NCBI GenBank assembly: GCA_951406725.2
Contig: OX597814.1
Span: 4,030,001-4,094,000, forward strand
DNA: 64,000 nucleotides
Direction: 5' to 3'
From: Octopus vulgaris
Lineage: Eukaryota
The notes below the pieces were generated by a model. That model was given only the letters and a program-made list of their open reading frames with translations. It searched no databases and was not told where the DNA came from. Positions 1,840-9,167 of the stretch are shown piece after piece. Positions within the stretch are counted from its first letter, which is position 1. The number at the start of each line of letters is the position of its first letter. The position numbers and the translations under genes are program-made.

Positions 1840-2190
1840 TTGGTAAGAAATTTGTTTCCTAACTACATGGTTCCGAGTTCAGTCCCACTCTGTGGCACCT
1901 TAGGCAAGTGTCATCAACCTTAGCCTCAGACTGCTCAAAGCCGTGTAAGTTTAATTTCGTCATCGGAAAATGAACGAAGCCTGCCGTGTATGTATATCCA
2001 TGTTTGTCTCCTCACCCCCACCATCGCTTGACAACCGGTCTTGATGTTTTTCGTCCCCGTAGCATTACGGTTCGGCAAAAGCGACCGATAGAATTAATCC
2101 CCAGGTTTAAAGAATAAGTAGCGGGGTCGATTCCTCAAGGTGGTGCTCCAGCATGGCCACAGCCTAATGACAGAAGCAAGTAAAAGACAA
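1840..2190 (+). mobile_element. Degenerate family-A SINE (tRNA head, CORE-like box, internal microsatellite, CR1-like tail)
   Basis: ggttccgagttcagtcccact B-box region, ccttaggcaagtg, tail ggtggtgctccagcatggccacag...aagtaaaag. Confidence 0.8.
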
Positions 2191-2389
2191 ATCAAAGGAT
2201 ATTTACAAATCCTGTCGTGGTGCTGTTTTCGGTGATCAGAGATTGTTTTGTTTTTCTTTATATAGAGTAGAAGCTCGCACAATACGAGTGTCCCGAATTG
2301 CTGTCTTGATGTACAAGTGGAACTCCGCAATACGAACACACAAATCGTCCCCTCTTTAAGGTAATTCAGTTAATAAAACCAGTTTACAT

Positions 2390-2626
2390 ACTCTTTCTCT
2401 TTACTCTTTTACTCTTTTACTTGTTTCAGTCATTTGACTGCGGCCATGCTAGACACCGCCTTTAGTCGAGCAAATCGACCCCGGGACTTATTCTTTTGTA
2501 AGCCCAGTACTTATTCTATCGGTCTCTTTTGCCGAACCGCTAAGTGACGGGACGTAAACACACCAGCATCGGTTGTCAAGCAATGCTAGGGGGACAAACA
2601 CAGACACACAAACATACACACACACA

Positions 2627-2704
<78 letters not shown>

Positions 2705-2878
2705 CATATATACGACAGGCTTCGTTCAGTTTCCGTCTACCAAATCCACTCACAAGGCATTGGTCAGCCCGGGCACTATAGCAGAAGACACTTGCCCAAG
2801 ATGCCACGCAGTGGGACTGAACCCAGAACCATGTGGTTGGTTAGCAAGCTACTTACCACACAGCCACTCCTGCGCCTA
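2390..2878 (-). mobile_element. Family-A SINE, full length
   Basis: Reverse complement of the copies at 3898-4312 and 14031-14453, with internal (TA)n. Confidence 0.92.
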
Positions 2879-3460
2879 TTTCTTTTGCATTCTCTTTTTT
2901 TTTTATATAATTGTCATTTTATTTGTAACTCCACCATTTCTGTTTTAAAATCCATTAAAAACTATTTTTGAATGGTTTGGGGGGAGGGGTTGGAACGGAT
3001 TAATTATACTTTAGATAATTTCAATGGGAAAAGCTGATTTGTAAAACGGGTAAATCGCAAGACGAACTCGGTCATGGAACGAATTAAACTCGTACAGCGA
3101 GGTATCACTGAACATAGAAAACGGATTATCTGGTAGAGGACTAAGGTTCTTGTGTACGAGCAATTTTCAAACATGTTCTCTTTTTTGTATCAGAGTTCTT
3201 TCAATGTAGTCTTACTTTTCTATCCGGGTGTTGGAGTGGAGTTACAAAACTACACACACACACACACACACACACACATTCATATATATATATATATATA
3301 TATACATATATATATGACTCGTTTGAGTTACCTACATTCGTCTCTTTGACGACCGTACGGCCTTTTTCTGTTGTATACGTATAATTATTTTTTTGCTTTT
3401 CAATTATTATATTATTCTAGTTAGCCGTGTTTGCTTTTGTCCTTGTCGTATATGTTCGTT

Positions 3461-3575
3461 AGCCATTCCCATTAGCTTTCTGCTTTGGCGCTGCCAAGAC
3501 AGAGTAGTATTAATGTAAAAAGCGCGAAACCATTATTATCTCTTGGACATTGGCTGATGAGGAATCAGCTGCGAA
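3461..3575 (+). ncRNA. Candidate rearranged (pseudoknotted) hammerhead ribozyme, family 1, in a Penelope-like remnant
   Basis: gcgct(3488-92)/agcgc(3521-25) before GAAA 3526-29; ccaaga/tcttgg; GUA 3507-09; ttaatgt/acattgg before CUGAUGA 3554-60; attcc/ggaat closing helix. Confidence 0.7.
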
Positions 3576-3689
3576 TTTTCCGTGTGCTATGGTTTTCTCG
3601 AATTTTCCATTTGTTACGTTTTTGTTAAATTTTCCGTTTGTTTTGTTCTTGTTATTTAATCCTTGAAATGTTTATATATTTACACACAT

Positions 3690-3862
3690 AGGCGCAGGAG
3701 TGGCTGTGTGGTAAGTAGCTTGCTAACCAACCATATTGTTCCGGGTTCAGTCCCACTGCGTGGCATCTTGGGCAAGTGTCTTCTGCTATAGTGCCCGGGC
3801 TGACCAATGCCTTGTGAGTGGATTTGGTAGACGGAAACTGAACGAAGCCTGTCGTATATATG

Positions 3863-3894
<32 letters not shown>

Positions 3895-4312
3895 TATAGG
3901 CGCAGGGGTGGCTGTGTGGTAAGTAGCTTGCTAACCAACCATATTGTTCCGGGTTCAGTCCCACTGCGTGGCACCTTGGGCAAGTGTCTTCTGCTATAGC
4001 CCCGGGCCGACCAATGCCTTGTGAGTGGATTTGGTAGACGGAAACTGAAAGAAGCCTGTCGTATATATGTATTATATATATATATATATGTATGTGTATG
4101 TGCGTGCATGTGCTTGTGTGTCTGTGTTTTTCTCCCTAGCATTGCTTGACAACCGATGCTGGTGTGTTTACGTCCCCGTCACTTAGCGGTTCGGCAAAAG
4201 AGACCGACAGAATAAGTACTGGGCTTACAAAGAATAAGTCCCGGGGTCGATTTGCTCGACTAAAGGCGGTGCTCCAGCATGGCCGCAGTCAAATGACTGA
4301 AACAAGTAAAAG
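3690..4312 (+). mobile_element. Family-A SINE with duplicated head (3690-3856 and 3898-4312)
   Basis: A box tggctgtgtgg, B box ggttcagtccc, CORE-like ccttgggcaagt; both heads share the variant catattgttccgg. Confidence 0.92.
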
Positions 4313-4419
4313 AGAGAGAGAGTATACATACACACACGCACGCTCACATATATATAAATACATATGCATGTATATATACGTACATATATACATATATACA
4401 AACATATTTTCTGACACTC

Positions 4420-4695
4420 TGTCACTTACGCGCTTTTGACGACGAAAATTCCAGTTGATGCGATCAACGGAACAGCACTCCACAGACACGTGTACTCTTA
4501 ATGTAGTTCTCGGGGAGATTCAACGTAACACGAAATGTGACAAGGTTGGCCGCTTTGAATTACTGGTACTACTCATTTTTGCCAGCTGAGTGGACTGGAG
4601 CAACGTGGAATAAAGTGTCATGTTCAAGAGTACAACGCGCCGCCAGGAATCGAACTCACGACCAAATACCCAAACCACTAATCGTGAACCAAATA
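4420..4695 (-). mobile_element. Degenerate tRNA-derived SINE (Meta-domain-like, tail shared with 20513-20900)
   Basis: Reverse strand cttgaacatgacactttattccacgttgctccagtccactcagctg; tail similar to 20750-20895. Confidence 0.7.
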
Positions 4696-4696
4696 C

Positions 4697-4848
<152 letters not shown>

Positions 4849-4956
4849 TACATACATCATGTATTTGATAAGGCATGTATGTGAAGAGTATATATGTGTA
4901 TCCATTTTTGGTAGCTGAGTGAACAGGAGCAACATGAAATAAAGCGTCTTGCTCAA

Positions 4957-5005
<49 letters not shown>

Positions 5006-5011
5006 TATATT

Positions 5012-5046
<35 letters not shown>

Positions 5047-5051
5047 TTGTG

Positions 5052-5104
<53 letters not shown>

Positions 5105-5975
5105 ATATATATGCAGGGTGTAGTGAATAAACTGTCGTCTAAATTACGCAAAAATGAAAATAACACTGACATCTCATTTTAACAGATATATTTACCAAAA
5201 TTACATAAAAATATCTTGAAATACTAAAGAGTAAATTTATTCAATAAAATCGCCATTGGCTTCAACCATGGCCTCCAGGCGACTTAGGAATCTCCTGCAA
5301 CTCTTTTGGATGGTCTCGCTGTTTAAGTTGGTGAATGCTGCCATAATCCTTGCCTTCAGTTCATCTTTGGTGTTACAAGGAGTTTTGTGTGTCACTCGCT
5401 CAACTGTGCCCCCCACATAATAATCAAGGGGGTTGCAGTCTGGGGAGCTAGGTGGCCAGATGTTAGGTGTGTTGTGGTCACAGAAATTGTCTGACAGCCA
5501 TGAGTGGGTTCTCCTGCTTGTGTGGCATAGTGCAGAACCCTGTTACTAGATATAGAGTCTTCCAGCAGCCAACCGCTTGACCCAGAGCAGCACTGCCTCC
5601 TCCAGGCACTTGATGTAGGCCTCCGTGTTGAATGTGAGGCTGTGTGGGAAGATGAATGGAGGCATAATGTCGCCATCACTAGTGATCACTCCAAACACCA
5701 TGATGTTGACTGGATGTTTGATTTTTATCACTCTCGGTACATGTGCTCAGATTGAAACCCAAACACTTTGGAATGTTCGTATTGAAGCTTCCGGAGCGAA
5801 TGCCAAGCGGTACAGCCTGTTGTTACCAAGTTTCTGGCAGAGGGAATTGTGTCATGGGGCTGTTTTTCTCACGGACGGCACCCAGCTGACCCTACTATAC
5901 TGTGTAGTCAACAAAATCAAAAACAAACAACGCACATGCGCAGAATTAAAAATATAAAAGGGCGACGGTTAGGCA

Positions 5976-6052
5976 TCTTGGAAAGACAAGAGGAGTGCTC
6001 GGAAAGACGAGCGGACAATAGGAAAGACTATCGACACTAGGAAAGACTGGTG
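5976..6052 (+). other. Array of four RNA hairpins with invariant GAAAGA loop in the Hero 5' UTR
   Basis: tcttg/caaga, gctcg/cgagc, atag/ctat and cactag/ctggtg each enclose gaaaga. Confidence 0.85.
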
Positions 6053-6110
6053 GAGGCTGCGGACTTACGATCCTCGCCTCTGTAATATATTGTAACGGAA
6101 ATAACTGGAA

Positions 6111-6870
6111 ATGACAGCCCCACGATTGACCGAGAGGGGGAGAGTCGAGAATCAATCAAACCCAGTCAGCACGGGAATGACCTTGGAAACGAATATGATT
6201 ATTCATTCGAACAGCGAACGAAATGCAAACAACTTTGGATGCAAGCTGTGTTATAGAACCTTTGCAACTGTGAGAGGCTTGAAGATACATCAAGGAAAGA
6301 CTTGTGAGACGAGGACAGAGCAGTGTGGATCGTCAGATCGTAAAACACGTGGCAAATCATCCCCGAACTCAAACCACAGCGGATCGATAAATGCTACAGC
6401 AGAGACCTCTTCACGTGATGAAGCTACAAGTCATGAAACTAGTGCATCGGATAATACTCAGAGGAAACCGAGAGTTTTGTGGCCTGCTGCTAATGAGAAA
6501 GTGAAATATAAAGAGTTTGAAAACAAGGTTTGTCGGGCTCTTTATAAAATGACAGGCTCTACAGTGGAGAAACTGGGTAAATTATCAAGCTCAATATACA
6601 ATATAAGAAAAGATTTATTTGGAATAAAAGAGAATATCCGACTAGAGAAAGGAAAGTGTGGACCACGCAGGCTGGAAAGCAGAACATTTTCCTATCGAAG
6701 TCGGATGTAGAGGGTTTGTTGGACACAGCGTGAGACGACTGTTGTTATCGCTAGGCCTAACTCATCGTAAAGTCAATACCACCATGACTGATATCCAATC
6801 TACAGTGGAGAAAGCTAGCCACTGGATTTGGTTAAAAAGAGACGATGAGCGATGGCTAGAAGTATATTGA
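6111..6870 (+). pseudogene. Hero ORF remnant: N-terminus (6111-~6668) joined to endonuclease C-terminus (~6665-6870)
   Basis: ORF track 6111..6710 and 6658..6870; motifs typical of Hero proteins. Confidence 0.8.
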
Positions 6871-6880
6871 GTTCTTCATA

Positions 6881-7030
6881 ACCAGCTGATCTAGCAAGCG
6901 GGGCCTCATATCAGTGAGGGGGGCCGGTGCGCATTGATGCCGTCGAGAGGTAGGCCACGAAACGGCGCGCATTCTCTCCTGATGACCCCATACACTTGCT
7001 AGCTTCCGGTATACGGAGCTTTTAACTGGT
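6881..7030 (+). ncRNA. Candidate rearranged hammerhead ribozyme, family 2, in the Hero 3' UTR
   Basis: ggggcc(6920-25)/ggccac before GAAA 6959-62; gccGUC 6939-44 pairs with acggc; gagag/ctctc before CUGAUGA 6979-85; gtgcgc/gcgcat; enclosing ctagcaag/cttgctag. Confidence 0.72.
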
Positions 7031-7282
7031 AGCACTTGCATGTGCAAGTTGTTTGCAAGACACCCATCGCACCCTGTATGTGCATGCACACGTACAATTT
7101 AAATAAGAGTTTCTGATATTTGCATTCTGTAGAGATACAATAATTTTGAAGATATATGTTACATAGATCCATACACGCACACGCGCGCACACACACACAC
7201 ACACACATACATGCACACACAAACACACACACACACATGCACACACAAACACACACACACACACACACACACAATAGGCCTA

Positions 7283-8607
7283 CATTTTCTTTTCTACTCT
7301 AAGCACAAGGCCCGAAATTTGGGGGGAGGGAGCCAGTCGATTATATCGACTCCAATACCCAACTGGTGCTTAATTTATCGACCCTCGAAAGGATGAAAGG
7401 CAAAGTTGACCTCGGCGGAATTTGAACTCAGAACGTAAAGACAGACGAAATACCTATTTCTTTACTACCCACAAGGGGCTAAACACAGATAGGATAAACA
7501 AGGACAGACAAACGGATTGAGTCGATTATATCGACTCCAGTGTGTAACTGGTACTTATTTAATCGACCCCGAAAGGATGAAAGGCAAAGTTGACCTCGGC
7601 GGAATTTGAACTTAGAACGTAAAGACAGACGAAATACCTATTTCTTTACTACCCACAAGGGGCTAAACACAGATAGGATAAACAAGGACAGACAAACGGA
7701 TTGAGTCGATTATATCGACTCCAGTGTGTAACTGGTACTTATTTAATCGACCCCGAAAGGATGAAAGGCAAAGTTGACCTCGGCGGAATTTGAACTCAGA
7801 ACGTAAAGACAGACGAAATACCTATTTCTTTACTACCCACAAGGGGCTAAACACAGATAGGATAAACAAGGACAGACAAACGGATTGAGTCGATTATATC
7901 GACTCCAGTGTGTAACTGGTACTTATTTAATCGACCCCGAAAGGATGAAAGGCAAAGTTGACCTCGGCGGAATTTGAACTCAGAACGTAAAGACAGACGA
8001 AATACCTATTTCTTTACTACCCACAAGGGGCTAAACACAGATAGGATAAACAAGGACAGACAAAGGGATTAAGTCGATTATATCGACTCCAGTGTGTAAC
8101 TGGTACTTATTTAATCGACCCCGAAAGGATGAAAGGCAAAGTTGACCTCGGCGGAATTTGAACTCAGAACGTAAAGACAGACGAAATACCTATTTCTTTA
8201 CTACCCACAAGGGGCTAAACACAGATAGGATAAACAAGGACAGACAAAGGGATTAAGTCGATTATATCGACTCCAGTGTGTAACTGGTACTTATTTAATC
8301 GACCCCGAAAGGATGAAAGGCAAAGTCGACGTCGGCGGAATTTGAACTCAGAACGTAGCGGCAGACGAAATACCTATTTCTTTACTACCCACAAGGGACC
8401 AAACACAGAGAGGACAAACAAGGACAGACAAACGGATTAAGTCGATTATATCGATCCCAGTGCGTAACTGGTACTTATTTAATCGACCCCGAAAGGATGA
8501 AAGGCAAAGTCGACCTCAGCGGAATTTGAACTCAGAACGTAGCGGCAGAAGAAATACCGCTAAGCATTTCGTCCAACGAGCTAACGTTTCTGCCAGCTCG
8601 CCGCCTT
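7283..8607 (-). mobile_element. Family-B (Nin-domain) SINE multimer: one head plus ~184-bp tandem units
   Basis: gaactcagaacg (one copy gaacttagaacg) recurs at 7424, 7608, 7792, 7976, 8160, 8344, 8528; Nin-like ctttcatcctttcggggtcgat on the minus strand. Confidence 0.92.
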
Positions 8608-9167
8608 AATAGGGCCACATAATGAATGACCAGCAAAAGTGTGGTGAGTAAGGGAGCTGGTGACAGTGGAATAACTATAACGAAGGGGTGATTAATCAAA
8701 TCCTTAAACATCATATAATTAATCGCAAGAATATTGACCACGAAATCCGAACTTTATTTATTTGTTTAACAAAAAAAAAAAATTGTTTATTAAACTAATT
8801 ATAAGGCTCATTAGCCTAAGCGGGATTAGAACATCCACCCACAGGTACACAATGCAAGGACACATACACAGACGCATACACACGCACACATTCGTTCACA
8901 AACACACACATAGACACACATACATACAAACACATTCACATGATACACAGTCTTAATTGTCTGTGCGTGTGTGTGTGTATCTAAGTTTATATTTATGTAT
9001 ATATGTCAGTACAAACATGTATATGTATATATATATGTATATACGCATGTATATACATATATATATATATATATATATAAGTATATGTATGTATATATAT
9101 ATATATATATACACGTATATATATGTGCATATATATATATATACGTTTATAAAAATATATATATATA

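Follow-up and report, generated by a model that had tools for sequence, protein, structure and literature searches.

The 3' end of a Hero-like non-LTR retrotransposon of Octopus vulgaris carries a complete hammerhead core in rearranged order, which is conserved in distant relatives and whose predicted cut site coincides with the point at which 5'-truncated copies most often begin. Cleavage there in vivo is very probable, and there is a better than even chance that the motif, as a self-cleaving hammerhead, cuts a longer-than-unit transcript to one unit and holds its ends, a closed template then being formed. The window analysed is a stretch of 64,000 nucleotides (contig OX597814.1, positions 4,030,001 to 4,094,000), to whose positions the coordinates below refer. 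The window copy of the element consists of the following parts.

5964..7064, forward strand: copy, with an internal deletion, of a Hero-like RLE non-LTR retrotransposon of 3.74 kb, by comparison with the full unit at locus L237
6105..6710, forward strand: N-terminal ORF remnant with a C2H2-type zinc finger (zf-C2H2_4, E 0.034, below the cut-off)
6665..6870, forward strand: C-terminal end of the RLE domain, with the deletion joint at 6665-6671 and the stop codon at 6868-6870; its frame differs from that of the N-terminal remnant
7031..7064, forward strand: terminal hairpin and priming region, without poly(A); insertions end 0-14 nt inside the spacer leading to the next unit

Positions 43-749 of the L237 unit (3738 nt in full) are here fused to positions 3343-3738, a deletion of 2.6 kb that has removed the RT; its joint was not found in the other fetched loci. 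The family itself is young and abundant, with 2199 candidate loci and a 20-mer present in 1184 exact copies. Its intact ORFs are 1115 aa long, with an RVT_1 domain (Pfam, E 5e-19) and R2 proteins as best PDB matches. A single ORF thus holds zinc finger, RT and C-terminal RLE, the layout of an RLE non-LTR element. The RLE part gave no Pfam hit and is assigned from CCHC and PD-(D/E)xK-like motifs, which we take to be those of an RLE. The ORF also gave no Pfam hit to a GIY-YIG endonuclease at E 0.1, as would mark a Penelope-like element, and its 1115 aa do not agree with a retrozyme, which is a non-coding, non-autonomous short repeat. Compared by eye, the L237 ORF matches the RT text of HEROTn and HERO-1_BF over long strings (PMC7650587 supplement). 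The initial annotation of this DNA had placed the motif in the 3' UTR of a Hero retrotransposon: the RLE element and the close RT match agree with it, but the window copy lacks 2.6 kb including the RT, and the Hero name is likely, not proven, the grouping having been made by eye. No relatives of the element were found in viral contigs.

Several observations concern its surroundings. A transposase fragment with the motif WPPSSPDCNP, presumably Tc1/mariner-like, lies directly upstream at 5237-5900 on the reverse strand. The 5' UTR of the window copy (5980-6050) has short repeated GGAAAGAC words in common with the distant relatives L050, L051, L059 and L064. Host-repeat arrays carry the element's 3' 415 nt through DNA-level amplification (L002-L011, L013; G000 C29). 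The same genome holds at least two further, older families (L205-L234, L223, L267), one of which has a ribozyme of k-turn type.

In the window copy GUC ends at C6944, GAAA occupies 6959-62 and CUGAUGA 6979-85; in this block order (GUC, GAAA, CUGAUGA) they make up a complete hammerhead core. The predicted fold is built from the following elements.

6881..7030, forward strand: outer helices 6881-85/7026-30 and 6891-98/6995-7002, clamping the cut from either side, with pair probabilities of 0.98 and 0.89
6900..6903, forward strand: 5' strand of P2a, the inserted helix; partner 6986-6989, right after A9
6904..6919, forward strand: inserted hairpin linking P2a to G10.1, with linkers absent on both sides
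6920..6925, forward strand: 5' strand of stem II, whose first base is G10.1 (G6920); partner 6953-6958
6927..6932, forward strand: 5' strand of the brace helix Px, partner 6967-6972; counterpart of the stem I-II interaction helix of type-SGC hammerheads (PMC10085705)
6933..6938, forward strand: 6-nt bulge separating Px from stem III; 9/19 relatives have a k-turn-like loop in its place
6939..6944, forward strand: stem III strand and GUC, with the predicted scissile bond at 6944/6945; stem III is 6939-43/6962-66
6945..6952, forward strand: stem I strand (partner 6973-6978; stem I is 6945-50/6973-78) and 2-nt linker to stem II
6953..6966, forward strand: 3' strand of stem II, C11.1, GAAA and 3' strand of stem III; mismatch A6957 private to the window copy
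6967..6989, forward strand: 3' strand of Px, stem I strand, CUGAUGA and 3' strand of P2a

All eight helices that the initial annotation had drawn are present, one of them (ggggcc/ggccac) with a G.A mismatch at 6921/6957. A6957 occurs only in the window copy: 29 unselected copies have 27 C and 2 T, and the other motif-matching loci have C in 27/27. The pair G10.1-C11.1 corresponds to 6920/6958, A9 to 6985 and C17 to 6944. The path from A9 to G10.1 runs through the helix 6900-03/6986-89 and the hairpin 6904-19 into G10.1, without linkers. CUGAnGA, GAAA and UH with A15.1-U16.1 are all in place, and the three stems border directly on the core, with the pair G10.1-C11.1, as in a hammerhead. Types I, II and III are defined by a circular block order without pseudoknots, and in the present motif stem I crosses stem III. 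A nested folding program assigns a pairing probability of zero to stems I and II, which are pseudoknotted. In a folding model the two predicted cleavage products reach -55.3 kcal/mol as a cofold versus -38.2 kcal/mol apart. A small hairpin 3' of the ribozyme (7004-7018) is kept across one sub-branch of relatives (L031, L033, L034, L248-L264).

Taken alone, the window sequence is unremarkable: its folding stability is not above that of shuffles (z -0.46), and an Rfam scan of 2000-9000 returned no hammerhead hit, only simple-repeat noise. It is the comparative data that give evidence beyond chance for the predicted fold. An alignment of 59 proteins led to 80 metagenome loci; 29 without the C-terminus were dropped, and among the 51 with it, 45 had a UTR of at least 180 nt. 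A strict descriptor matched 22 of these 45 relatives versus 0/45 reverse complements, 0/44 ORF windows and 0/900 shuffles. When core changes were allowed, 10 more relatives matched (32/45 in total; null 0/180), and the other 13 had no motif even under these relaxed rules. With the core letters fixed and the remainder shuffled, 9 of 1900 sequences passed. Five relatives without a detected motif (L046, L053, L054, L058 and L064) have divergent C-termini; the distribution of the ribozyme may reach its limit here.

Among the selected matches the core is invariant in an unguided alignment. Over the 19 non-redundant matches, a set that leaves out L041, L067, L078 and L099, N7 takes all four bases and positions 1-2 of stem I take all four Watson-Crick pairs. 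Because pairing is built into the descriptor, support that does not depend on it is important; G10.1-C11.1, for instance, is demanded by it, and its 19/19 is not independent. For 11 selected sequences in a plain MAFFT alignment, RNAalifold recovered stem III and Px as well as P2a and the hairpin. Once both pseudoknotted stems are included, 31 of the 37 base pairs vary on both strands in these 11 sequences, and compensatory changes are found in every helix. Their paired cells amount to 88.8% versus 63.2% when shuffled, a test inflated by relatedness, and 34-47% when slid. P2a, which the descriptor does not require, has 4 bp in 16/19 relatives versus 52/342 swaps; two of the three chimera controls were weak, with 88/342 and 178/342 still passing. 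The initial annotation had proposed that the element ends 3' in a hammerhead core of rearranged order, and had suggested an alignment of 3' UTRs with a covariation test. A comparison of this kind, made on metagenome relatives of this Hero-like RLE element, bears the proposal out.

Two further features vary among the relatives. A k-turn has a 3-nt bulge followed by GA, opposite GA, between two helices. This pattern is fitted by the loop between stem III and Px in 9/19 relatives, a count with no null computed, and it is absent in the window family. In one branch (L045, L047, L051, L039, L231, L258) a tRNA-like sequence, with A-box and B-box-like words seen by eye, lies between stop codon and ribozyme; as an internal promoter it might drive Pol III transcription of the downstream unit.

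Six hammerhead block orders were proposed in 2023 (PMC10085705). Type-SGC hammerheads (HRIMA-1 and variants; Eckert et al. 2023) have the order S, G, C and were shown to cleave, slowly, at 0.007-0.13 per min (PMC10085705, Table 1); the portions of that paper used here place them in metatranscriptomes only, with none from genomes of known organisms and no link to a retrotransposon. Like them, the Hero-like motif has the order cleavage site, GAAA, CUGAnGA, together with a short linker between stems I and II and a helix joining the other sides of these stems; as in some of them, the interaction helix is joined directly to stem III (PMC10085705). In type-SGC the stem II strand immediately follows CUGAnGA, whereas in the Hero-like motif two helices tether a stem II strand that is situated upstream. 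Stem II pairing right after A9, counted from the base after A9 with 11.1, gives 0 bp in 16/19 relatives and 2 bp in 3/19. Block C is thus broken, and the Hero-like motif would therefore work like type-SGC without being a member. Its novelty is the predicted split between A9 and G10.1 and its setting, the S-G-C order having already been published (PMC10085705). Accordingly, where the initial annotation had called the core rearranged and unexpected, this holds for the split and the host element but not for the order.

CUGAnGA and its stems have been assumed not to be separable by more than one or two bases (PMC10085705). A viroid ribozyme tolerates one extra base at the 9-10.1 step (PMC3705267), and the insertions in the part of PMC3088659 used here are of 1-2 nt only, at other places. 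Beyond the one extra nucleotide documented in PMC3705267, we found no tested precedent in the literature searched for a two-helix insertion at A9-G10.1. The openly readable literature yielded no prior report of the Hero-like split motif; a prior description is possible.

If the predicted site is cut in vivo, the genomic copies may hold traces of it. We collected copies lacking 6924-27 but holding 6970-89, which gave 56 loci; 17 with upstream homology were left out, as were L196 and L197, and 37 true truncations remained. G6945 is the exact start of 12 of these 37, followed by a position with 4. The expectation, simulated on real flanks with an identical caller, was 2.5% (P about 6e-11), and no truncation (0/37) starts at the neighbouring GAG at 6947. 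In a second family, which has a different triplet, 5/45 truncations fall at the site and 9/45 at -1/0 (P 0.001 and 5e-5), the latter count being used because a chance A often shifts the called true ends. These 45 come from 100 examined of 180 matches, 55 having been dropped for upstream homology; the first count, before enlargement, had been weak (3/28). The family 2 pattern with A-negations gave 5 matches only, and a third, older family in the same genome only 1. The cut after C6944 that had been predicted from the window thus coincides with a sharp one-nucleotide truncation peak in two families, and cleavage in vivo at this site is very probable on these copies.

The 12 copies that start at G6945, taken with L117 and L118, comprise 9 haplotypes at 7 variable columns and so do not come from one master copy; a single-master origin was rejected on this ground. 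A splice acceptor at 6945 was rejected, the preceding letters being GTC and not AG. Both truncation peaks precede GAG, which therefore leaves some room for a sequence preference. T is found before 11/12 cut-site copies versus 14/25 of the others, an excess that is not significant (P 0.058) and that CpG decay does not explain (1/29 intact copies). In five truncated copies (L158, L167, L386, L394, L431) the upstream sequence is the reverse complement of element sequence, that is, a 5' inversion.

A different explanation of the peak is that the fold is hammerhead-derived but non-catalytic, binding protein for the RT, and that the peak marks a stall or a cellular nuclease site. The core is after all interrupted at A9, catalysis is here predicted from sequence, and R2-type proteins bind structured 3' UTRs (PMC12222951). 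Nevertheless, the letters of the catalytic core are kept while N7 is free, and in two families a peak of single-nucleotide width falls on the site that had been specified beforehand. A stall at 6945 would not be expected either, because the RT would already have copied the partner strands. We regard this explanation as very unlikely.

The G6945-start copies amount to about 2% of copies (estimated as 12 / 0.50 / 1184), and about 98% read through the site intact. The ribozyme might also cut without the ends ever being joined, the cage of helices holding a nicked circle and the RT jumping the nick. Template jumps usually add or lose bases, and against such jumping only 1 copy has added bases at the site, the adjoining 21-mer being held by 723 copies. 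The folding models, in which the products stay paired, speak for a nicked circle, and PMC6765202 cites work on R2 RT synthesis across non-continuous templates. Three copies also speak for it, one continuing G6945 into the element's own RT region (L117) and two joining the site to upstream element sequence (L332, L415); these joins are possible template switches at an RNA end. On balance we consider a nicked circle quite unlikely.

The arrangement of the full copies bears on the form of the template. A precise tail-to-head junction, from 3' end to 5' UTR, is common to 19 loci. Among the 19 copies with the first 5' UTR word, 18 are joined to the 3' end of a partial copy and the 19th breaks within the junction. 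The upstream copies at the 19 junction loci are partial, of varied length, and have unique flanks; 15/19 cross the upstream cut site and 0/19 start at it. In 5/13 tandem pairs both partners have locus-private variants in common, which are absent from all other compared sequences; 8/13 have none and are uninformative. A G-run indel differs between tandem partners in the same direction in 3 loci and in the opposite direction in 1. The 3' ends lack poly(A) and lie 0-14 nt into the spacer (63 copies). In the assembled relatives L050, L059 and L078 the ORF's zinc finger follows the 3' UTR. No recurring head-to-tail junction was found among 28 family 2 matches, and the one sequencing contig that crosses a unit junction has only 26 letters on one side and was not counted. 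The element thus has no defined 5' end, and the layout of its full copies suggests that it is copied from a closed RNA loop rather than from a linear message. Internally deleted units of 570-1440 nt (L323, L324, L329, L319) also have the tail-to-head junction, which suggests non-autonomous mini-units.

Tandems could in principle arise from self-insertion into the 5' end of the element's own copies, or from DNA duplication, leaving the RNA uninformative. Penelope elements are said to insert beside existing copies (PMC6765202), and two of the junction loci (L321 and L330) look like one duplicated event. However, 18/19 full-length copies would need hits at one base, independent insertions would not have private variants in common, and the flanks are unique. 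A DNA-level origin of the tandems is already largely refuted and extremely improbable.

We also considered that the ribozyme is slow or regulated and that uncut multimeric transcripts of tandem loci are the templates, cutting serving to limit or mature them, for example at a downstream mRNA 5' end. Read-through and the 2% peak would then be explained without ligation. The slow cleavage of type-SGC ribozymes (PMC10085705) fits, and the k-turn-like loop of 9/19 relatives could permit protein control. On the other hand, the upstream copy could only shrink with each generation, and the private variants common to partners require a tandem remade from one unit. Furthermore, a cut 5' end would give upstream copies starting at the cut, of which there are none. 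Templates of this kind are therefore, in our estimate, unlikely.

In the cycle that we prefer, a locus made of a partial copy with ribozyme followed by a full unit would be transcribed, and cleavage of the transcript by its two ribozymes would release an RNA that begins at G6945 and runs round to C6944. The extra helices would hold its 5'-OH and cyclic-phosphate ends, which the ribozyme or a host RtcB-type ligase would join. The element's RT would be primed internally on the target DNA, about 120 nt 3' of the cut, and would copy round the closed template. It would mostly fall off early but sometimes pass one unit, regenerating the two-ribozyme layout. On RNA that was cut but not joined, the RT would run off after about 120 nt and leave the copies starting at G6945. 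The initial annotation had found it puzzling that sequence 3' of the cut is retained, and had suggested a nicked but base-paired template or a regulated switch; the nicked template stays a live variant, whereas a head-to-tail closed unit would explain the retention better than a switch. Against the proposed cycle stand the read-through of about 98%, equally explained by slow cutting, and Px, which joins stem III without a linker on one strand, a geometry called unclear by PMC10085705 itself. A dimer in which the loop of one RNA docks into that of another would be an alternative solution to the geometry.

An equivalent cycle has been proposed for Penelope elements (PMC4209133) and retrozymes (PMC7229834). 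Like Penelope-like elements, the Hero-like element is an autonomous retroelement with a hammerhead in a terminal repeat and with partial tandems arranged head to tail; Penelope-like hammerheads usually have an additional base between 9 and 10.1, and a circular intermediate was proposed (PMC4209133). Unlike Penelope, which has type I minimal ribozymes, a GIY-YIG endonuclease and a telomerase-like RT (PMC4209133), it has an RLE and a pseudoknotted, permuted motif with a two-helix insertion. In retrozymes the hammerhead cuts multimers to monomers that circularise, probably via RtcB, which outperformed self-ligation, and the circles are the proposed RT templates (PMC7229834; bioRxiv 10.64898/2026.07.22.740005). 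Non-LTR retrozymes are non-coding, of 170-400 nt and type I (same sources), whereas the Hero-like unit has 3.7 kb and its own 1115-aa ORF. The Hero-like unit resembles R2 with its 5' HDV-like ribozyme (PMC6765202, PMC13580325) in having a single ORF of RLE type and a co-transcript that a ribozyme would process, but its ribozyme is of another class and lies after the ORF, there is no fixed 5' end, and insertion is dispersed at short A/T sites. It shares with the HERO clade that these are mostly non-specific RLE elements; the clade descriptions in the parts of PMC4640811 and the PMC7650587 supplement used here do not mention a ribozyme or a tandem cycle.

We see about an even chance that Hero is an autonomous protein-coding RLE clade without real ends, with a ribozyme-made circular RNA of about 3.7 kb as both message and template. 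The core of its four-block hammerhead would be open between A9 and G10.1; many members would also have a k-turn that folds the brace helix back and may give protein control of cleavage. If true, this would extend hammerhead topology beyond the six proposed block orders, and animal genomes would be seen to contain a ribozyme that is non-circularly permuted. To the question, left open in PMC10085705, of how the interaction helix reaches stem III, the k-turn-like loop would offer a testable answer. The genomic copies would record cutting in vivo at the level of single nucleotides, and the family, being young and having intact ORFs, makes the long-proposed circular RNA of an autonomous target-primed retrotransposon directly testable. 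The finding may thus be relevant to how non-LTR elements avoid 5' erosion and to template design for R2-type gene insertion tools.
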